DNA of 64,000 nucleotides from a phage, in sequence record PZ386972.1. The stretch is one strand, 5' to 3'. Shown one piece after another: positions 38,004 to 46,877 of the stretch (position 1 is the first letter of the stretch; every line of letters begins with the position of its first letter). The translations under genes and the position numbers were made by a program. Under the pieces are notes generated by a model. The model saw nothing but the letters and a program-made list of their open reading frames with translations, was not told the origin of the DNA and did no database searches.

Positions 38004-38041
38004 CTAAATGCAAAAAGGGGAAGGAGCATAGCCCCCTCCCC
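38004..38041 (-). terminator. hairpin terminator after D5-like gene, overlapping alternative helicase start
   Basis: imperfect G/C-rich stem followed by TTTTTGCATTT on minus strand. Confidence 0.5.
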
Positions 38042-38060
38042 TTAGGTTTAATTTACCAGA

Positions 38061-38828
38061 TTATTCAGCAGCCGCAGCTTTTGCATCCAGTTTAGCACGC
38101 TTAGCGGCACCATCATAGTCCTTAGCAACCAGACCACGACGAGACAGCATAGATTTAACACCGCGCTCAGATTTACCAGTTTTCTCAGCGATCTCAGCAA
38201 CAGTCATGTTAGCCAGATCCAGACCTTCTAACAGATCTTCACGAGTTTTAGCACTTGAGGTTTCCTGTACCGGCATAGCAGCGATACGACCTTCACGAAG
38301 CAGGCTCAGAGCTTTACCACGGATCTGCTTGATATTACGACCGAAGTGAGCAGCGATAGCTTCAATAGTAGCACCAGCAACAACCTGATTAACAAAATCA
38401 GTTTCTTCATCCGGAGTAAAGGAACGAACAGCAGCAGCTTTTTCAGTTGGTTTAACAGAAGCAGTCATTTCCAGACTCAGGATCTTACCCTGTACCTGTT
38501 TAGCACCGAACTGACCACCAGCTACAGCAGCAGCGATTTCAGCATAGGTATACTGACCAGCATGAGCGTTCAGGAAATCAACCAGTTCAGCTTCCTGCTC
38601 AGGAGTCCACGGGGATTTCTGTACTTCGTTAGCTTTCTGTACTTCAAAACCTTCTTTACGCAGTTTAGAGCCAACAGAGCGAGCAGTAACATCTTTGCCA
38701 GTTTCAGCAGCCAGTTCAGTAGCGATAGCAGCTACTTGTTCTTGAGAGATTACAGAAACACCCAGAGCAGTGGCTTTTGCTTTCAGAGACTCGGTTACAC
38801 CTTCTACGTTCCAGTTCAGTTTAGACAT
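38061..38828 (-). CDS. D5-like DNA-binding protein with repeated helix-turn-helix-like modules
   Basis: 255 aa; three internal repeats of a WT/FTPE...EIA...G module; Ala/Lys-rich C-terminus. Confidence 0.55.
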   Translation of the reverse strand: MSKLNWNVEGVTESLKAKATALGVSVISQEQVAAIATELAAETGKDVTARSVGSKLRKEGFEVQKANEVQKSPWTPEQEAELVDFLNAHAGQYTYAEIAAAVAGGQFGAKQVQGKILSLEMTASVKPTEKAAAVRSFTPDEETDFVNQVVAGATIEAIAAHFGRNIKQIRGKALSLLREGRIAAMPVQETSSAKTREDLLEGLDLANMTVAEIAEKTGKSERGVKSMLSRRGLVAKDYDGAAKRAKLDAKAAAAE

Positions 38829-39603
38829 TATTATTTTTCTCCAATAGTTCTTTAATCGACAGGATTTCTATCCCATTCGTTTCGGCTTTCTTATAAGATG
38901 AGGAAGAACGCTTCGATTCATCCTCACAGATTAGGTATTTGACGTCTTTGGTAACGGATTTCTTAACCGTATACCCTAGACTTTCTAAATAGTTTGTTGC
39001 ATCCGTTCGATTTGCAAAATCTTGCAAAGATCCGGTAATACATACCGCGATTCCATTTGGCTGGGCAACTAATTCATCTGTAATGATGACGTCAGCTTTA
39101 GTGCCCTTAATACCAGTTGAAAATTTCCACGGTAATTCGATAACATCCTTGCCTTGTGGGGAATTTAGCCAGGCTTTATAATTTTCTCCAGCCTTGCCGT
39201 CAGCCTTCACATCATGGAAGCTAGTGCAATTTTGGGATAATTTCTTTGCTGCAACCTCTCCAATTAGAGGGATTCCTAAAGAACCGAGAACTGAACCAAA
39301 GTCAATGTCTCCGCGAACTTTAGTATTTAATTCGCTAATTAACTTAGCGGCAACCTTGCTACCCACGGCTCTAACCAAATCTTCTTCGGTTAGGTAAAAT
39401 AGTTCTGAGATCTTCGTCAGCTCCAGCTTCTCAATAGTTTTTGGACCAAAGCCCTTTAACTTCATTTTTGTACAGAAGTTCTCAATTAACTTACTTGATT
39501 GCGCTGGACAGTTGGACTTATTCCGACAAAATAATTGTCCGTTGACAAGATCTAGCTTAGAACCACAAGAGGGACATTGTGTTGGAATTTCGATTTTCAT
39601 CAA
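38821..39603 (-). CDS. NAD-dependent DNA ligase, C-terminal part (Zn finger, HhH, BRCT)
   Basis: 260 aa; CPSCGSKL...CRNKSNCPAQ zinc finger at N-terminus, GFGPKTIEKL HhH. Confidence 0.8.
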   Translation of the reverse strand: MMKIEIPTQCPSCGSKLDLVNGQLFCRNKSNCPAQSSKLIENFCTKMKLKGFGPKTIEKLELTKISELFYLTEEDLVRAVGSKVAAKLISELNTKVRGDIDFGSVLGSLGIPLIGEVAAKKLSQNCTSFHDVKADGKAGENYKAWLNSPQGKDVIELPWKFSTGIKGTKADVIITDELVAQPNGIAVCITGSLQDFANRTDATNYLESLGYTVKKSVTKDVKYLICEDESKRSSSSYKKAETNGIEILSIKELLEKNNNV

Positions 39604-39630
39604 ATTTCTTCCTTATCAATTTATATAAAT

Positions 39631-39659
39631 ATTATAGCAAGTATTTAAGCATTTAGCAA
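39631..39659 (-). promoter_or_regulatory. early promoter (TTGCTA, 17 bp, TATAAT) for ligase C-terminal gene
   Basis: read on minus strand in the ligase spacer. Confidence 0.6.
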
Positions 39660-39723
39660 CTACAATTTTAACTAACTTTGCTTACCCTCGCCATAACTTT
39701 CTATCCCTCAACTGAATGATAAT

Positions 39724-39752
39724 AGTATATACCTAAGCGGCGAAAATGTCAA
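39724..39752 (-). promoter_or_regulatory. second promoter in ligase spacer (TTGACA, 17 bp, TATACT)
   Basis: consensus -35 hexamer with 17-bp spacer read on minus strand. Confidence 0.5.
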
Positions 39753-39802
39753 TAACCACTTTATAATTCCGATATGGTAGATGGGTAGCAAAGGGTTATG
39801 TA

Positions 39803-40774
39803 TTAATCGTATACTCGTTCTACTATGCACGGGATTACACCACCAGCACGAATCACTCGAATCTGGCAACCGATCTCTAGATCGAGAGAGTTAATATAAT
39901 CAACGTTATTAAGAGTCGCTTTAACAATTGTAGCATCATCAATAATTACCGGTTCGAAATAACCAACTGGAGTTACTTTACCAGAAGCCCCTACCTGCCA
40001 TTCAACTTTAGTAAGAGTTGTAACCTCGCCTTCTTCATCCTCTTTAATAGCGAATGCTCCACGAGGGAATTTATTAGTCCAGCCTTCACGGAAGAATTTG
40101 TTGTTGTCATTAATACGAACAACTTTACCATCCGTCGGAATCCATTTAAAGAAGGAACGCACATTAACAACTGTTAAGAAGTTCTCATTCTCCAGCCAAA
40201 GCATATCTTTTAAATATGCTTCTGTAATACCTACAGATTCAGCAGAACACTGGATACCATATGCAACGAAGATTAAACCACCTTCTCCGATACGTTGTAC
40301 AAAATCATCACTATCTTTGAGGTTAATAGCACCAGAGGCAAAGTTACGTTTATTTTCTACTTCTTTTGTAATTAGAACTTCACCAGTGATTTGAGTAGGT
40401 ATTTTTTGGGAAATCTTTTTAGGGATATTCAGCAATCTTACGTTGCTTGTGACATCATTTCCCAGAATACCATTGCCACGAGTTAGTGCTTGAACAAATT
40501 CTCCATTAATATATAACAGAGAAATCGCACAACCATCTAACTTATCAGTTTCTACCTGACCTAATGGGTTGAATGGGGGTTTATCTCCACGATTATAATA
40601 AACTTTCTGTAAAGAATACATACGATATAGATGTGGAATATCACCCTTAGGTCCGATCTCTTCTTCTAACGGGAAGCGTTTTACCAGGCAATCATACTCC
40701 TCATCTGAGATTAAAGACATACCTTGATAATATGCTTCTTGGCAACGTTTAATAAAGTCTTTTACATTGGTCAT
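39803..40774 (-). CDS. NAD-dependent DNA ligase, N-terminal part (adenylation + OB domains)
   Basis: 323 aa; KLDGCAIS adenylation motif (KxDG); OB-domain-like C-terminus ending at a domain boundary. Confidence 0.8.
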   Translation of the reverse strand: MTNVKDFIKRCQEAYYQGMSLISDEEYDCLVKRFPLEEEIGPKGDIPHLYRMYSLQKVYYNRGDKPPFNPLGQVETDKLDGCAISLLYINGEFVQALTRGNGILGNDVTSNVRLLNIPKKISQKIPTQITGEVLITKEVENKRNFASGAINLKDSDDFVQRIGEGGLIFVAYGIQCSAESVGITEAYLKDMLWLENENFLTVVNVRSFFKWIPTDGKVVRINDNNKFFREGWTNKFPRGAFAIKEDEEGEVTTLTKVEWQVGASGKVTPVGYFEPVIIDDATIVKATLNNVDYINSLDLEIGCQIRVIRAGGVIPCIVERVYD

Positions 40775-41047
40775 TTATTCTGCCTCATAGTATGTGGGTT
40801 GTCTAGTGGATCCGTGCCATGTATAATTTTTGCAAAGATGCAAATATGTAGTTTTTACTAGCCTATCTGACAACGGAGAGTATATTTCAGCTACTAATAC
40901 TTCTTTTTCGTAATGAAGTGAAATCAGCTTATACCCACTTCTAGTTTTAGTATACTTTTCTCCATTAATCTTCTCCTCCCACATAAGTATAAGAGGCTGT
41001 CCGATGTACGGGAAAGGTTTAAGTGTACTTATACTTATCTTTTTCAC
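40775..41047 (-). CDS. hypothetical protein
   Basis: 90-aa ORF with GTG start downstream of promoter 41078-41106. Confidence 0.35.
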   Translation of the reverse strand: MKKISISTLKPFPYIGQPLILMWEEKINGEKYTKTRSGYKLISLHYEKEVLVAEIYSPLSDRLVKTTYLHLCKNYTWHGSTRQPTYYEAE

Positions 41048-41077
41048 TTTGCAACCCTCTCATTAATTTATATAAAT

Positions 41078-41106
41078 ATTATATAACAAAACTGAGTTGA
41101 AAGCAA
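41078..41106 (-). promoter_or_regulatory. early promoter (TTGCTT, 17 bp, TATAAT)
   Basis: read on minus strand. Confidence 0.55.
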
Positions 41107-41110
41107 GTAC

Positions 41111-41150
41111 ATTTATAAAGAAAAAGCCAAGAACTAGGCATTCTTGGCTT
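41111..41150 (-). terminator. rho-independent terminator after PC4-like gene
   Basis: AAGCCAAGAA / TTCTTGGCTT stem followed by TTTTCTTTAT on minus strand. Confidence 0.7.
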
Positions 41151-41442
41151 TGAGTTCTTCAGCTCGTTTCTGTACTTCATGTAAAACCTCAGATTCGCTA
41201 AGAATCTGTGTAAACGCATAGAAAAGCTGTGATGTTGTTTCTAGGGTGTAAGGAAAAGAGAAGCCAGATTTCGTTGGAAACCATTCATCATTAATATCAA
41301 GAAGCCAGTAACGAATACCCATGTATAGATTCCCACGAAATTCAGATACTGTTAATCTTACTTGTTCCCCCTCCTTCTCCCAAAGTATGATGGACTGGTC
41401 ATCAACGTGTCCTTCATAGTTTTGATTTACCTGTTCGCTCAT
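41134..41442 (-). CDS. PC4-like ssDNA-binding protein
   Basis: 102 aa; VRLTVSEFRGNLYMGIRYW resembles PC4 fold core; a T5 PC4 homolog is described in the literature. Confidence 0.55.
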   Translation of the reverse strand: MSEQVNQNYEGHVDDQSIILWEKEGEQVRLTVSEFRGNLYMGIRYWLLDINDEWFPTKSGFSFPYTLETTSQLFYAFTQILSESEVLHEVQKRAEELKAKNA

Positions 41443-41452
41443 TTACATATCC

Positions 41453-41482
41453 CAAATACACAAAAAGCCCCATATAGGGGCT
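41453..41482 (-). terminator. hairpin terminator
   Basis: AGCCCC-atata-GGGGCT hairpin followed by TTTTTGTGTATTT on minus strand. Confidence 0.6.
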
Positions 41483-41492
41483 AATTGGTTTC

Positions 41493-41789
41493 TTATCGGC
41501 CTACTGGAGAAGCACGATCTAACTCTGATTGGAGGCTAGTCACACGACGGACTTTCTCGACAGGAATAAAACGGAAGCTATCATTAGTACGAGAGAAGAC
41601 AAGGATTTCATCATCTTTCGCTTTACGAATACGTTCACGTTTAATACGCTCAGCCAGATATTTATCTTGGGCTGGATCAAATTCCATCGTACCCTGAAGG
41701 TACGTGGTTCCTTTCTGACGAAGTTTCTCGTAATGAAGATAAAACTCACCAAATTTTTCACATTGTGCGATAATTTCAGCTTTGGTCAT
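41493..41789 (-). CDS. hypothetical protein
   Basis: 98-aa ORF. Confidence 0.4.
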   Translation of the reverse strand: MTKAEIIAQCEKFGEFYLHYEKLRQKGTTYLQGTMEFDPAQDKYLAERIKRERIRKAKDDEILVFSRTNDSFRFIPVEKVRRVTSLQSELDRASPVGR

Positions 41790-41825
41790 AACTGTGTTCC
41801 TTTTGTTGGTGGATTTATCTAAAAA

Positions 41826-42236
41826 TTACTTAGTGATAGCTCGGATTGCTTCTGCCAGATGAGCAGCCGCTTTACCGGTCAGTTTGTCGATAATCGCATC
41901 ATCCAGAAAATCTGGTGCTAGGCCAGCATCAGAGAATGCTGAACGAAGATCGGCGTGAGCTTGGGCTTTGGAGGTACGAGAACCACCGGAAGCTTTTTCT
42001 CCAGTAGATGCGCTAGATTTAGAAGCAGAGCCAGCAGCTTTCTTGATATATACACCTGCTTTGGTCAGCTTCATACGAAAACCGTTCGGAGTTACACCAT
42101 TTTCCTGAGCAATTTCGCTAACAATTTCCATGCTAACACCCGGACGTTCATCCTCTGGGAATTGCTCCATACGAGCAATGTATTCGGAAGACATTTTTTC
42201 GAACAGTTCATCAGTCCACTGAGTTGGAGTAGTCAT
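41826..42236 (-). CDS. D5-like paralog (single HTH-like module, Ser/Ala/Lys-rich linker)
   Basis: 136 aa; QWTDELFEKM...EIVSEIAQENG module resembles repeats in 38061-38828. Confidence 0.45.
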   Translation of the reverse strand: MTTPTQWTDELFEKMSSEYIARMEQFPEDERPGVSMEIVSEIAQENGVTPNGFRMKLTKAGVYIKKAAGSASKSSASTGEKASGGSRTSKAQAHADLRSAFSDAGLAPDFLDDAIIDKLTGKAAAHLAEAIRAITK

Positions 42237-42293
42237 ATTTTATATTTCCTTAATTAAGAATTAAACAGAATAGTTCTTTCAAACTATGAGAAT

Positions 42294-42322
42294 ATTATAT
42301 CAAGAATTATAGGATTAAGCAA
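42294..42322 (-). promoter_or_regulatory. early promoter (TTGCTT, 17 bp, TATAAT)
   Basis: read on minus strand; followed by AAGGAAAT RBS. Confidence 0.6.
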
Positions 42323-42342
42323 CTGAAATTTTTCGGTAACTG

Positions 42343-42630
42343 CTACACATCTAGTTCAACGATCTCCCAATCATCCGCCAATGCTTCCTCTAAGGTTAGA
42401 GATGTGGTTTTCCATGTTGCGTCTTTTATATCGAACTTGGTATATCCATCTTCATTGGGCCACCAGGTAAACTCGACAATATCATTATTATCAACATCTA
42501 CTTTTATAATAGTAGAGTAACAGGTACGAACATCCCAGTTACCCCAGCTATCCCGTTGGAGATATTTTACATCTCCATCTTTAAGCAAATCTGTTAGCTT
42601 ACTCACGGCGTTTTCCTTTCTCTTTATCAA
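42343..42630 (-). CDS. hypothetical protein
   Basis: 95-aa ORF. Confidence 0.4.
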   Translation of the reverse strand: MIKRKENAVSKLTDLLKDGDVKYLQRDSWGNWDVRTCYSTIIKVDVDNNDIVEFTWWPNEDGYTKFDIKDATWKTTSLTLEEALADDWEIVELDV

Positions 42631-43303
42631 GTTTCAAGGCGGCCTTAACAGCTTCGTTAATCAACGTAATAATTTCTTCACGAGTCCACTTATATCCTAG
42701 AGATTTTACGTCTACCCCTAACTTTTCCAGATGTTTAACAGAAGCCAGCTCGTAATTCATATAATGAACGTTCTGTTGTTTGCCTTCTGATAGAAGCCAT
42801 ACACGGTAGCAACCAACAGGATTATCCATTGCTTTTTTGATTTCACCGATACACTGGTATCCAGGAACCCAAACAAGCTCACCAACTGCAAATTCTTCTG
42901 CTACAGCATCATCAGGAATAATCGGAGGATTCAATGGATCTACAATATCATTCAAACGAAGTAGAGCACCATAGCGTTCCAGAACAGATTTAACCATTGC
43001 TACAGAACGATAATTACGATCGGCAATCTCTTCAAAAGAATCACCAGATAAATACTGCTCAATAACGTTGGCTAACTCGATGCCTTCAATGAGTGTGCCA
43101 CGTTTCTTTTTCTTCATTTCGGCAACTTGAATCTGGCGGTCTTGCCATTCTTCAATCATCCTTTCCATAGTTGGATTGGATGATACGCCGAGCATTTCAC
43201 ATGCTGCTTTCTTAGTACCACCGTTCTCCAGATGCTCTATAACCTTTTTAAAGACTTCATCCGGGATTTCATGGATATGTTTCTTTCTGCGAGAACCAGC
43301 CAT
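42599..43303 (-). CDS. putative DNA-binding regulator with two helix-turn-helix-like segments
   Basis: 234 aa; KKAACEMLGVSSNPT and SFEEIADRNYRSVAMVKSVLER HTH-like; directly downstream of PN25-type promoter. Confidence 0.5.
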   Translation of the reverse strand: MAGSRRKKHIHEIPDEVFKKVIEHLENGGTKKAACEMLGVSSNPTMERMIEEWQDRQIQVAEMKKKKRGTLIEGIELANVIEQYLSGDSFEEIADRNYRSVAMVKSVLERYGALLRLNDIVDPLNPPIIPDDAVAEEFAVGELVWVPGYQCIGEIKKAMDNPVGCYRVWLLSEGKQQNVHYMNYELASVKHLEKLGVDVKSLGYKWTREEIITLINEAVKAALKLDKEKGKRRE

Positions 43304-43334
43304 ATTTAAACTCCTCTCTCAAATTTATGAATCT

Positions 43335-43363
43335 ATTATACAGAAAAATTTTCCTGAAAGCAA
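43335..43363 (-). promoter_or_regulatory. strong early promoter matching the T5 PN25 sequence (TTGCTT, 17 bp, TATAAT, then CATAAATTTGAGAGAGGAG)
   Basis: minus-strand sequence TTTATTTGCTTTCAGGAAAATTTTTCTGTATAATAGATTCATAAATTTGAGAGAGGAG recognised from memory as PN25. Confidence 0.8.
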
Positions 43364-43371
43364 ATAAATTT

Positions 43372-43614
43372 TTACGATTCCTTGAGCAAAGAAGCAAGTT
43401 CAGCATAGACTTTATCTAACTCAAAGCCGATGCGAAGAGATACGTTAGTTTTCCGTTGTTTAAGTAACCACTCGGATATGTTAGGGATGCCAGCTAATCT
43501 ATGTGGTACCACCCTACATAGCTTTTCCGAAGTGTCGTAAACAGGAACTTTACGTTCTTTTACTGGGAACTTCCTTGTTTCCCATTTTTTATTCTTCACT
43601 GTCATTTCTAGCAC
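43372..43614 (-). CDS. hypothetical protein
   Basis: 80-aa ORF. Confidence 0.35.
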   Translation of the reverse strand: MLEMTVKNKKWETRKFPVKERKVPVYDTSEKLCRVVPHRLAGIPNISEWLLKQRKTNVSLRIGFELDKVYAELASLLKES

Positions 43615-46378
43615 CTAGCTCTGCCATTGCTTCATCATGCATATGTTTCTCCTCATCAGTCATAAACTTATATGGAATTGGCATACACTCGATTTTACAA
43701 TAAGTTCTGTACCAGTCTACAATATTCTCCGTGTTCATATCCTTACCAATACCCATCATACCAAGATACATTCTTGCATATTTTGGGTTAGCACTCTGAC
43801 CTGTTTTAAGGAAGAAATCTTTCTTTTTACCTTTCAAAGCTTCTATGAATGGTTTGATAGTGACATTTGAACACTTCTTAATATCCTCCCAGAACATCTC
43901 GTGCATCTTATGAAAGAATGCAGCTCTATCATTCGGTTTATCTTTGATATATTGTTCAACATGCTCAACCGTTACATCTTTAATAGACTCAAGATGATAA
44001 TAGCGAACAAGAAGTAGTTTAGCTTCATACGCATCTGCATGGCGGGGGGCACAATAATCAGGAGTTGAGTACAAAATGGCTTTGATTCGCTCTTCTGTAT
44101 ACTCTTTACCTGCACCTTCGATAGTTCCCCAGCTTTCACTGAAAATATCAATAGTTGCACCCTGATCAAGCAAGTAATAACGTAAAGTACTAGTATAGTT
44201 CCTAGACTCCAGCTCCCTGCGACGTGCGTATAATTGCTGTGCTAACTCCAGCCAACCCTCATCAATGTTATATTGTTCAGAACCTGCGGAAAATCCACTC
44301 GTAGATTTATCAATAAAATAATAAATGTTCTGAGCGCCACGGTCGCGCCTGATTGCTTGAAAACGCATGTTTGGCGCTTGGTTACTAGTTCTAGTAATAA
44401 CGAATACGTTATCAAAATAGTTGAAGTCAACACCACTCGTTACGGATGGACTACATAATAAGCAATCAATTTGTTGGTCAATTAGCTCATTAGTTGTGTA
44501 ATCCAGAATACGTCGAATATCCACATCAGACGTAGAGTTTGAGTGGATTTCCTTAACTAACGCACCCGTATTACGACGCAATGCCATGCCCTTCTCATTC
44601 AGTTCATCCGGACCACAGTCAGATACTAGGATAGATTTCTCACCCATCTCTAGGGAAGTCTGAAGTGCAACCCAAATACTGGATTCATCAGGGAACTCAT
44701 AAGCATGAGCTTTTGACAGCATTTTACGATGATGATTATAAAATGCAACCGGTTTATCAAACTCAATCAAAGAACCATATGCTTCAATTGTTTCTGCACT
44801 AATATCCCCATCAGATAATATAATGATTTTTGCAGTTGCAAGAATATCCCGAAGAACCTGAATGCACTCGCGACGTTGTTTAACAACCGGGGCGAATAAT
44901 AGGTCATTCATTACTGCATCACATTCATCAATAAAGATTGCATCAATTTGACCAATAAAACTCTTGAACTTATGCAAAGAGTGAATAGTTGTGGACATAC
45001 GGTCAATAGCACCACGCTTAAAATTAAGCATATCTACAGACTTATCATATTGTCCTGCGCTAAATTTCTTAGCGTTTGAAGATACCAGCGCTCTAGTATT
45101 TGTAACTGCTAAGAAATTACCTTTAATAACTCCTGAATCTAACCAACGCACAACCGCCGTGGTTTTACCTGTACCTAGACTTGCTTTTACAAAAGTCATA
45201 TAACCTTCTGGCGGTACAGTATTTAATTTCAAAAAGTTATCAGTTTCTAGGGAATTAGTTTCTAGCTTTTTAAGTGGAATACCTTTTAAAACATCAGGTA
45301 TATCACGTTTAGAATTATTAACAAACGCTTTCAGAGCCTGTTTACGACCGTTATTAAAGTAATCTTGAATATTACGACTATTATCTTTAGTTGCAATATA
45401 TTCTGATAAGGCTGGACGGATTTCTTTTTCTAGCCATGCAAAATCAACACCATCCTCTAAAGCTCTGTGATAGAGTTTAGGTATGATACGTAGATACACT
45501 CCATCCTCAGCTTCTTCTAGTTCGCTGATAGTTTCCTCTACTTTATCAGAGGCAGCTTTTTTACCTTTAATTTGATCGAGTAAAGAGTAAAACTCCTCCT
45601 TAAACTCACCTCTAGTTGTTTCATAGTCAACCAGATTATTAGGTAAATTTACTTTAGAACCCTTAACAAATACCAGACGTGAAGCACCCTCCGCCTTAAA
45701 CGGATCTACTATACCATCAGTAAATAACGGATCTGCAAAATAATGGAGCTGTACGGAAGAGTAATAAGCTAAGTCGGCAATATCAAAGCCATACTTTTGT
45801 CTACTACTTTCGTTGATAGATGTAAATAAGAATTTGATTTGACCCTGAGTTACTTTAACATTAGATTCTAGTATTAGGTGCATTCGGATACCTGGTTTTA
45901 GCCCAGCCGAAGACGATGCATGAGCGATAAACCCTGCATCGAGAGGAAACATGTCCTCACTAATACTATTTAACATTCTAATAATATGTCGAGCCATGCC
46001 AACAAGATCAAACTTGTTACAACCACCTGTATCTACAATACCATCCACGTCCATTGCAATTATATGACTTGGATTAGATACATTAAAGTTGCCCTTCTTA
46101 CGCCGCACATTATTTTTAGGTGCAAGACATCGACCTCGTACCGCAACGATATGAGGATCAGACGTTAAACGTCTCATAAGAGGGAGCATTTCTACTAGGG
46201 TTTGAGGATCAACTTCATCAATTACATCAAACTTGAAGGGCATTGAAGCTGGTTTACCTTCAGAATGCTTTGAGGAAAATCTTTTAGCAAAAAGATAGTC
46301 TTCTGCTTTAACTTCTCGCCAAATGCCTGTGGCTAAATCGCGATGAAATCCTGCATGACCTTGTAGGATTGAGAACAC
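43589..46378 (-). CDS. primase-polymerase (AEP-like) domain fused to P-loop ATPase/helicase; candidate replication initiator
   Basis: N-terminal IIAMDVDG, GFIAHASSSAG and YFADPL resemble AEP motifs I-III; central Walker A LGTGKTT and Walker B IFIDECD; start placed at GTG after AGGAG, the six-frame ORF extends to 46456 with TTG. Confidence 0.55.
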   Translation of the reverse strand: MFSILQGHAGFHRDLATGIWREVKAEDYLFAKRFSSKHSEGKPASMPFKFDVIDEVDPQTLVEMLPLMRRLTSDPHIVAVRGRCLAPKNNVRRKKGNFNVSNPSHIIAMDVDGIVDTGGCNKFDLVGMARHIIRMLNSISEDMFPLDAGFIAHASSSAGLKPGIRMHLILESNVKVTQGQIKFLFTSINESSRQKYGFDIADLAYYSSVQLHYFADPLFTDGIVDPFKAEGASRLVFVKGSKVNLPNNLVDYETTRGEFKEEFYSLLDQIKGKKAASDKVEETISELEEAEDGVYLRIIPKLYHRALEDGVDFAWLEKEIRPALSEYIATKDNSRNIQDYFNNGRKQALKAFVNNSKRDIPDVLKGIPLKKLETNSLETDNFLKLNTVPPEGYMTFVKASLGTGKTTAVVRWLDSGVIKGNFLAVTNTRALVSSNAKKFSAGQYDKSVDMLNFKRGAIDRMSTTIHSLHKFKSFIGQIDAIFIDECDAVMNDLLFAPVVKQRRECIQVLRDILATAKIIILSDGDISAETIEAYGSLIEFDKPVAFYNHHRKMLSKAHAYEFPDESSIWVALQTSLEMGEKSILVSDCGPDELNEKGMALRRNTGALVKEIHSNSTSDVDIRRILDYTTNELIDQQIDCLLCSPSVTSGVDFNYFDNVFVITRTSNQAPNMRFQAIRRDRGAQNIYYFIDKSTSGFSAGSEQYNIDEGWLELAQQLYARRRELESRNYTSTLRYYLLDQGATIDIFSESWGTIEGAGKEYTEERIKAILYSTPDYCAPRHADAYEAKLLLVRYYHLESIKDVTVEHVEQYIKDKPNDRAAFFHKMHEMFWEDIKKCSNVTIKPFIEALKGKKKDFFLKTGQSANPKYARMYLGMMGIGKDMNTENIVDWYRTYCKIECMPIPYKFMTDEEKHMHDEAMAELGARNDSEE

Positions 46379-46877
46379 AACAATACTCCTGTGTTGGAAA
46401 TGAAATAAGTTTTCTTTAGGACTATTCAGAAAGAATAGAACAACTGTTACTGTCAATTTCTCAACAAATTAATTGCAAATACTGAAGTGGGGTGGCAACT
46501 TCCACTTTCACGCTGCGCTGCTGCTTTGCTATATCGCACAAATCCTTGAGGATGGCCGCTAAGCCAGATTTGCTCACCTAATGCTTCATATACTAGCTCA
46601 TACTAGATGCAATATAACTTACAGAATCACGTCTCGGAGTTTTTCACTCCTCCCGTCTCACTTCACAACCACCTCTATCTAGGTTGCTTCGAGGCCTTAC
46701 CAGGGTTCCTACGGGACGCAGATCGCTAAGTATTCTATTAACTATTTGTTTAAAAACTAACACGTAACAGTTAAAACAACCCTTAATGTGGCAGCCTAAC
46801 TGTTCCGTATCGCGGATTGTAAACAAGAAAAATTAGCAAAATCAATTTTTACTAATGTCTCTCAATTCAATATAAAT

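Follow-up and report, generated by a model that had tools for sequence, protein, structure and literature searches.

The early protein D5 of bacteriophage T5 reportedly binds double-stranded DNA (dsDNA) in a cooperative and non-specific manner. It is annotated as a DNA-binding protein that is required for replication and late transcription and is involved in shutoff (RefSeq note; McCorquodale et al., 1979, J Virol 29:322, as cited in PMC12630848), and the mechanisms that switch T5 transcription from one gene class to the next were described as still unknown (Klimuk et al., 2020; PMC7472727). Recently, D5 was found to trigger the type IX retron-Kva2 through binding of a helix-turn-helix (HTH) to the stem-loop of the multicopy single-stranded DNA, or msDNA (preprint 10.64898/2026.07.11.737809). 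A second T5 protein, the pre-early A2, has been described as a dimer that binds dsDNA; A1 is a further binding partner, and A2 alone triggers the abortive infection of ColIb (bioRxiv 10.1101/866236). Among solved structures, the one closest to the HTH module analysed here is the DNA-binding domain (DBD) of Caulobacter GcrA (PDB 5yiu/5yiv), a protein that combines one such domain with a sigma-70-interacting domain and prefers GANTC sites with N6-methyladenine. In this study, we analysed the genes D5, D3 and D2 in a stretch of 64,000 nucleotides of phage DNA (sequence record PZ386972.1), which is referred to as the window. D5 consists of four tandem HTH modules, and homologous modules occur once in D3 and once in D2. 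We consider it reasonably probable that the three proteins share one ancestral three-helix HTH, with D5 as an architectural array that would coat DNA and D3 and D2 as companion DNA-binding proteins.

Early genes of a T5-like phage

The window belongs to a Tequintavirus and shows 96-98% identity to T5 relatives. The 5.4-kb region that contains the three genes was matched by 519 phage records (420 of the 519 cover at least 80% of it), nearly all of them from Tequintavirus and other Demerecviridae. D5 (T5.118; 255 amino acids, aa), D3 (T5.113; 136 aa) and D2 (T5.111; 234 aa) are 98.8%, 97.1% and 99.1% identical to the respective proteins of RefSeq T5. The genes, their order and the promoters PN25, PN26 and PK28a/b are the same as in T5, without any material difference. 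D5, D3 and D2 are therefore long-known early genes of T5-like phages and do not constitute a new system; what is added here is detail at the level of domains. It is already on record that D5 binds DNA and is needed for replication and late transcription, that D3 is labelled a DNA-binding protein and that PN25 precedes D2. D5 is a member of the D5-like family, as the profile phrog_323 ('transcriptional regulator, D5-like') matches residues 1-253 (E = 3e-71), and its gene lies downstream of ligB and upstream of the gene for a DnaB-like helicase, where members of this family are located. A search of NCBIfam returned no family for D5, D3, D2 or A2.

HTH modules in D5, D3 and D2

To describe the modules, D5 was divided into the segments R0 to R3, D3 into an N-terminal and a C-terminal part (D3_N and D3_C), and D2 into HTH1, HTH2 and the C-terminal part D2_C. 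Smith-Waterman scores of segment pairs were judged against 500 shuffles. Homologues were collected for D5 (904 hits), D3 (57 hits) and D2 (49 hits), aligned and sliced, with the D5 slices taken from a 62-sequence family alignment, and the resulting profiles were compared by hhalign, using 60 column permutations of one partner as the null. AlphaFold2 (AF2) models were made of D5 and D2.

A preliminary description of this locus, based on the letters of the DNA and its open reading frames (ORFs), had proposed three copies of a module of about 45 aa in D5. The repeats are real according to Smith-Waterman, hhalign and AF2, but there are four copies, and the period is ~64 aa, made up of a core of ~45 aa and a linker (in the AF2 model the units start at residues 11, 76, 139 and ~205). 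The model of D5 combines a high predicted local distance difference test score (pLDDT 92.8) with a low predicted template modelling score (pTM 0.51), which fits rigid modules joined by flexible linkers, with uncertain orientation towards each other. In R3 the first helix is degenerate and reduced to a short turn (residues 205-207).

R1 (residues 71-122) and R2 (residues 135-187) resemble each other with a Smith-Waterman z of 8.6 and an hhalign probability of 96% (z=18 versus column permutations), and have extended motifs in common. R0 reaches 45% with R1 (z=6.9), 34% with R2 (z=7.4) and 29% with R3 (z=6.0), while R3 reaches 58% with R2 (z=5.8) and 6% with R1 (z=5.4). The single module copy that had been assigned to D3 was confirmed: D3_N matches R0 at 91% over 60 columns (z=11.3; Smith-Waterman z=5.3), R3 at 90% (Smith-Waterman z=5.8) and R2 at 77%. 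D2 HTH2 matches R2 at 94% (z=16.8) and R3 at 86% (z=9.1), the latter pair with 44% identity over 41 columns and a Smith-Waterman z of 8.5. All pairs among R0-R3, D3_N and D2 HTH2 outscore 60 of the 60 column permutations (z 4.4-18), and the significance of the repeats thus holds for these segments; it does not extend to HTH1 versus HTH2 of D2 (z=0.9 against the 60 permutations). An internal duplication as the origin of D2 is not supported by this value. HTH1 shows weak similarity to D5 R2 (z=5.7). D3_C and D2_C served as negative controls and were rejected as module copies, since every hhalign pair with them stayed below 3%; D3_C against any module gave less than 1%.

When all ORF segments of the window (513) were scanned with module hidden Markov models (HMMs), D5 and D3 matched each other reciprocally (E 0.001-0.02). 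D5 is also matched by the D2 HTH2 model with E = 0.002; in the opposite direction the D5 models match D2 weakly, with E values of 0.3 and 1.1. No further paralogs were found among the 513 segments, unrelated ORFs beginning at E ~0.1.

D2 had been described as carrying two HTH-like segments. In the AF2 model (pLDDT 87.4, pTM 0.70) both are three-helix HTHs, and in helix length and spacing HTH2 is nearly equal to D5 R1 and R2; HTH1, which is weakly matched by Pfam HTH_23 and HTH_8, could not be established as a copy of the module. Judged by sequence comparison, homology to the D5 modules can therefore be demonstrated for HTH2 alone within D2. Further on, the model shows a four-stranded beta domain (residues 143-182), a barrel of Tudor/SH3-like type, and C-terminal helices. 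The 234-aa D2 is labelled 'helicase' in RefSeq, which gives the name D2 to T5.111, and likewise in phrog_3611. We reject this label, as D2 is without an [AG]xxxxGK[ST] Walker A motif and any Pfam match to a nucleoside triphosphatase, and the model consists of HTHs and a barrel; the 928-aa helicase T5.108, taken as a positive comparison, has the Walker A sequence ASLGTGKT. The name D2 is borne by two genes, both on the minus strand, namely the 234-aa T5.111 (42599-43303) and the 928-aa T5.108 (43589-46456), and it was the 928-aa UL9-like bipolar helicase (AAU05245, T5.108) that was characterised as 'D2' by Wong et al. (2013).

Conservation in the D5 family is concentrated in the third helices. 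Of the 50 columns that are invariant or nearly so, 24 lie in the four third helices, whose residues amount to 17% of the protein (p=7e-9); this is the pattern expected for DNA-recognition helices; in R0, residues R50, K55 and R57 are invariant. In the C-terminal tail G240 is invariant and D237 and K246 are nearly so, and this tail may serve protein-protein contact. A wider profile search in 1.84 billion cluster representatives yielded 532 D5-like representatives. Some D5-like proteins hold five or six modules, such as P0227 with the order R0-R12-R12-R12-R3, and in unrelated long proteins similar HTH units form arrays of at least four to seven. Since the number of modules varies and arrays occur elsewhere, the unit behaves as a true duplicating repeat. 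The examples with five or six modules or long arrays were drawn from P0227, P0290, P0298, P0350, P0357 and P0360. In P0350 (569 aa), about five modules behind an N-terminus resembling sigma-70 region 4 were seen by eye, and the HMM count confirmed only two modules.

The preliminary description had further suggested that D5, D3 and D2 form a paralogous set. At the level of the domain this is correct, as the HTH module is homologous, but the closest paralog of D3 is A2, which in T5 is encoded at NC_005859 3727-4134 and lies outside the window. The profile phrog_1725 ('DNA binding protein') matches D3 over its full length (residues 1-136 on profile positions 1-127 of 129, E = 6e-50) and T5 A2 over its full length as well (E = 4e-52), and hhalign gives 91-95% for A2 against the D3 family (91% over 66 columns). 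Therefore, on the evidence of these profiles, D3 can be regarded as an early full-length paralog of the pre-early A2. The Pfam family PF26822 ('Phage_T5_A2') is precomputed on D3 homologs and on some D5 homologs. A2 against D5 gives 95% with the whole family (E = 3e-8) and 96.5% with the R0 slice, which is a relation of domains only: D5 is not a full-length member of PF26822 or phrog_1725, and only its R0 module is homologous to the N-domain of A2. Mutual hhalign values of A2, R0 and D3_N are 91-96% over 50-66 columns. The two proteins also differ. The pre-early A2, whose gene lies in the terminal repeat, binds A1 and is required for the second step of DNA transfer. D3 is an early protein of the replication cluster, and the motif conserved in its C-terminal region (DKLTGKAA) is a different one. 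In this C-terminal region D112, I115, K118, T120, G121, K122, A123 and A124 are invariant. Because A2 is a dimer, a role of the region in dimerisation or partner binding may be considered.

Several results weigh against D5 as an array of homologous modules that coats DNA. The column-permutation null removes helical periodicity and is therefore lenient, so that significance is overstated. The hhalign probabilities of several module pairs (R0-R1, R0-R3 and R1-R3) are modest. Generic HTH families of Pfam score about equally: Sigma70_r4_2 on R3 (E = 6.9e-7) is the only Pfam match past its cutoff (29.3 bits versus 25.7), and the others are generic HTH families such as HTH_23 on R2 (E = 1e-4). In a Foldseek search of the whole D5 chain against the PDB, no match fell below E 0.05. 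Finally, D5 is a 26-kDa monomer by mass photometry (preprint 10.64898/2026.07.11.737809).

The Pfam matches of similar strength imply that part of the module similarity could reflect the general HTH pattern. In the extreme case, the segments would be independent generic HTH domains that resemble each other through a common fold and the composition of their Ala/Glu/Lys-rich helices. The low identity between most module pairs (16-31%) and the missing significant link between HTH1 and HTH2 speak for this explanation, as does A1: its N-terminal domain was reported to be GcrA-like in structure (bioRxiv 10.1101/2022.08.27.505566), yet it was rejected as a sequence paralog of the module, since all hhalign probabilities were below 1.3%. 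Fold similarity alone is thus cheap. However, the extended motifs of R1 and R2, the high values among R0, A2 and D3_N over 50-66 columns, and the identity between R3 and D2 HTH2 go beyond a common fold, the cross-matches of the window scan are confined to D5, D3 and D2 (weak in the D5-to-D2 direction), the non-module controls remained negative, and D5 relatives vary in module number through extra copies of the R1/R2 type. Independent origins are therefore considered very unlikely. The positions of all modules and of the regulatory elements are given in Table 1.

Table 1. Positions of genes, modules and regulatory elements in the window (residue numbers refer to the encoded protein; helices are from the AF2 models)
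Feature	Position	Strand	Residues	Description
D5 gene	38061..38828	(-)		four tandem HTH modules and conserved C-terminal helix
D5 module R0	38631..38813	(-)	~6-66	A2/D3-type HTH; helices 11-22, 29-43, 49-58
D5 module R1	38469..38609	(-)	~74-120	WTPE...GK.LSL; helices 76-88, 95-101, 109-118
D5 module R2	38289..38420	(-)	~137-180	FTPD...GKALSL; helices 139-150, 155-162, 166-178
D5 module R3	38130..38243	(-)	~196-233	weaker unit; helices 210-217, 221-231
D5 C-terminal tail	38064..38123	(-)		conserved tail/helix (DYDGAAKRAKLDAK...); helix 240-254
Strong terminator-like intrinsic hairpin	38015..38043	(-)		directly after D5 stop; 13-pair stem, 8 GC pairs, then T run
PK28a and PK28b	39608..39775	(-)		drive ligB-D5; consensus matches 39752-39724 and 39659-39631; in ligA-ligB gap
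D3 gene	41826..42236	(-)		one A2-type HTH module, G/S-rich linker, conserved C-terminal helix
D3 N-terminal HTH module	42039..42221	(-)	~6-66	hhalign to D5 R0, T5 A2 and GcrA DBD
D3 C-terminal region	41829..41981	(-)		invariant DKLTGKAA motif; family alignment
PN26 early promoter	42268..42342	(-)		drives D3; -35 TTGCTT 42322-42317; -10 TATAAT 42299-42294
D2 gene	42599..43303	(-)		HTH1, HTH2, Tudor/SH3-like beta barrel, long C-terminal helix
D2 HTH1	43103..43267	(-)	~13-67	helices 15-26, 31-38, 43-67
D2 HTH2	42968..43090	(-)	~72-112	homologous to D5 R2/R3; helices 74-85, 90-97, 101-110
D2 C-terminal region	42605..42886	(-)	~140-233	beta barrel and helices
PN25 early promoter	43308..43382	(-)		drives D2; -35 TTGCTT 43363-43358; -10 TATAAT 43340-43335

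Fold likeness and gene neighbourhood

Structure prediction agreed with the proposal of related folds, as AF2 gives four three-helix units in D5 and two HTHs in D2, and the GcrA DBD is the best structural match for both models, followed in the fold searches by Tc3, c-Myb/WER, Bdp1 SANT, Reb1 and Timeless Myb-like domains. The three-helix N-terminal DNA-binding fold is common to GcrA and the module. When the sequence of the GcrA DBD (residues 1-48, confirmed as the PDB sequence) was compared with the profiles by hhalign, R2 reached 73%, D3_N 69% and R0 52% over 44-46 columns, with controls below 0.2%. The profile of R1 and R2 gave weak Myb-type matches among PDB sequences (SNAPC4, 1e-4; Timeless, 2.5e-3; c-Myb, 6e-3), and the pattern of the module is Myb/SANT-like: [W/F]-T-x-E ... 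EIA ... G ... [R/K]-x-[V/I]-x-G-K-[L/I].

None of the described families accommodates D5 as a whole. The Pfam family GcrA (PF07750) was rejected, as there was no match with E of 1 or lower for D5, D3 or D2; the highest-scoring homolog reached 17 bits (cutoff 26.9), and this only over the DBD part, at positions 2-66 of the 155 in the model. GcrA has one DBD and a sigma-70-interacting domain; D5 carries four modules, and in place of a sigma-70-interacting domain its C-terminal part holds the fourth HTH and one helix. Some D5 homologs carry precomputed matches to PF00249 or PF13921, but D5 falls outside Myb/SANT (PF00249), with 17.5 bits versus a cutoff of 24.4, and the regular tryptophan triad is not conserved except for the first W/F. 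Compared with the tandem repeats of Myb/SANT proteins (c-Myb R1R2R3, SNAPC4 and the Timeless DBD), the linkers of D5 are longer (~20 aa). Compared with the bipartite or tandem HTH domains of transposases (Tc3, Mos1; HTH_23, HTH_28, HTH_38), D5 is without a catalytic domain and has four modules instead of two.

The preliminary description had assigned control of the early-to-late switch to the whole set. For D5 a role in late transcription is supported by classical genetics, and no evidence was found that links D2 or D3 to transcription. In a stricter form, D2, D3 and D5 would be site-specific transcription factors at the early and late promoters of T5 that directly execute the switch, for example in the manner of GcrA, which recruits the sigma-70 RNA polymerase. 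Site-specific regulators typically carry HTH modules, the GcrA DBD is the closest structure, D5 is needed for late transcription and shutoff according to the RefSeq note, PHROGs labels it a transcriptional regulator, and how T5 carries out the switch has yet to be explained (PMC7472727). However, the sigma-interacting domain of GcrA is absent and its Pfam family is unmatched by the proteins of the window, and in all relatives examined the genes are placed among helicase, ligase, DnaB and primase genes. Moreover, D5 is also needed for replication and binds the unrelated hairpin of retron DNA, which argues against strict sequence specificity. We therefore regard site-specific regulation by the three proteins as unlikely.

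The order of the cluster is UL9-like helicase, D2, D3, PC4-like protein, ligA, ligB, D5, DnaB-like helicase, primase and PolA. Vibrio phage D259 and a metagenome contig of the Joint Genome Institute (JGI) have the same order, and their D2 and D3 homologs are 36-38% identical to the proteins of the window. Conservation of such a replication-gene cluster speaks for a function on replicating DNA no less than for promoter-specific regulation. The PN25-type promoter that had been predicted before D2 was verified, as the region aligns almost base for base with 'promoter P-N 25' of NC_005859. Likewise, the region before D3 aligns with 'promoter P-N 26' of the same record, and RefSeq T5 annotates P-K 28b and 28a at the site equivalent to that in the window. 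D2, D3 and ligB-D5 are thus each preceded by named strong early promoters.

Potentially, the three proteins act mainly as accessory factors of the replisome or of recombination at origins, nicks or forks, and the defect of D5 mutants in late transcription is an indirect consequence of failed replication. Their position in the replication cluster is conserved, and D5 shares a transcript from PK28a/b with the gene of ligase subunit B. Late transcription in T5 also depends on the flap endonuclease D15, and D5 affects the T5 polymerase at nicks in vitro. The RefSeq note lists D5 as required for DNA replication. On the other hand, the record also gives D5 a part in the shutoff of earlier gene expression, which is not obviously an effect of replication, and no typical replisome loader, clamp or single-stranded DNA-binding (SSB) domain was found in profile searches of the proteins. 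A mainly accessory role is possible, though rather doubtful.

Several neighbouring genes were noted in addition. The window encodes a split NAD-dependent DNA ligase (38821-40774, minus strand) with the genes ligA and ligB and, in the gap of ~200 bp between them, PK28b and PK28a; ligB and the start of D5 have 8 bases in common. At 41134-41442 (minus strand) lies the gene of a 102-aa protein with a PC4 domain (transcriptional coactivator p15, single-stranded DNA-binding; Pfam E = 8e-8). It is flanked on both sides by terminator-like hairpins and is found at the same position in Vibrio phage D259. There is an overlap between the end of D2 and the small ORF T5.112 (42343-42630, minus strand; 83 aa as annotated, 95 aa as the longest ORF), and both are probably transcribed together from PN25. 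T5.112 is matched by phrog_643 ('transcriptional regulator', E = 6e-16) and by no Pfam family. Two genes for HNH homing endonucleases that T5 carries nearby, hegI and hegJ, are absent from the phage of the window. The hegJ site (between the genes of the DnaB-like helicase and the primase, ~36506) and the hegI site (between the UL9-like helicase gene and T5.110, ~43600) are empty, and at each site the gene pair abuts or overlaps directly.

Possible roles on phage DNA

DNA binding by D5, D3 and D2 is plausible, and for D5 a mode of action as an array of modules is proposed. The third helix of each module would be placed in the major groove, so that one D5 monomer would contact several successive grooves of duplex DNA. 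Strong early promoters would ensure abundant synthesis of D5, which would coat the phage DNA as an architectural rather than a site-specific protein. This coat may support replication, close the early promoters and permit late transcription, and D3 and D2 would act as companion DNA-binding proteins of the conserved cluster of replication genes. In Yersinia phage phiR2-01, the D5 homolog Gp110 was detected by mass spectrometry among the most abundant, or major, virion-associated proteins in particle preparations (PMC8624392), in agreement with an abundant DNA-associated protein. The T5 virion is not known to contain D5.

The modules can also be related to mutations that allow escape from retron-Kva2, which were reported as G53D, W74*, V149I and G232D in D5, E76Q in D2, and E30Q and G85D in D3 (10.64898/2026.07.11.737809). 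All of them fall in the module-bearing trio D5, D3 and D2. Within D5, G53D maps to the third helix of R0, W74* to the first residue of R1, V149I to helix 1 of R2 and G232D just past the third helix of R3. E76Q lies in the 234-aa D2, at an almost invariant position of the first helix of HTH2; as the 928-aa helicase has H at position 76, the 'helicase D2' of the preprint is the 234-aa HTH protein.

It is tempting to speculate that the GcrA-like HTH module is the common feature of T5 that is sensed by msDNA-based and other abortive-infection systems, given that D5 with its four copies triggers retron-Kva2, that the escape mutations lie in D5, D3 and HTH2 of D2, that A2 is the sole trigger of the ColIb system and that retron Ec67 escapers lie in the N-terminal domain of A1, reported as GcrA-like in structure. 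In its strongest form, D2, D3 and D5 would build one nucleoprotein assembly on phage DNA that executes the early-to-late switch. We regard this idea as distinctly unlikely.

In summary, this study adds to the known genetics of T5-like phages the description of D5 as an array of four GcrA/Myb-like modules, a link at the domain level between A2, D3, D5 and HTH2 of D2, a correction of the 'helicase' label of D2, and the assignment of all retron-Kva2 escape mutations to proteins that bear the module. The map of the modules supplies constructs and point mutants with which the DNA binding of D5, and what it is that retrons sense, can be addressed.

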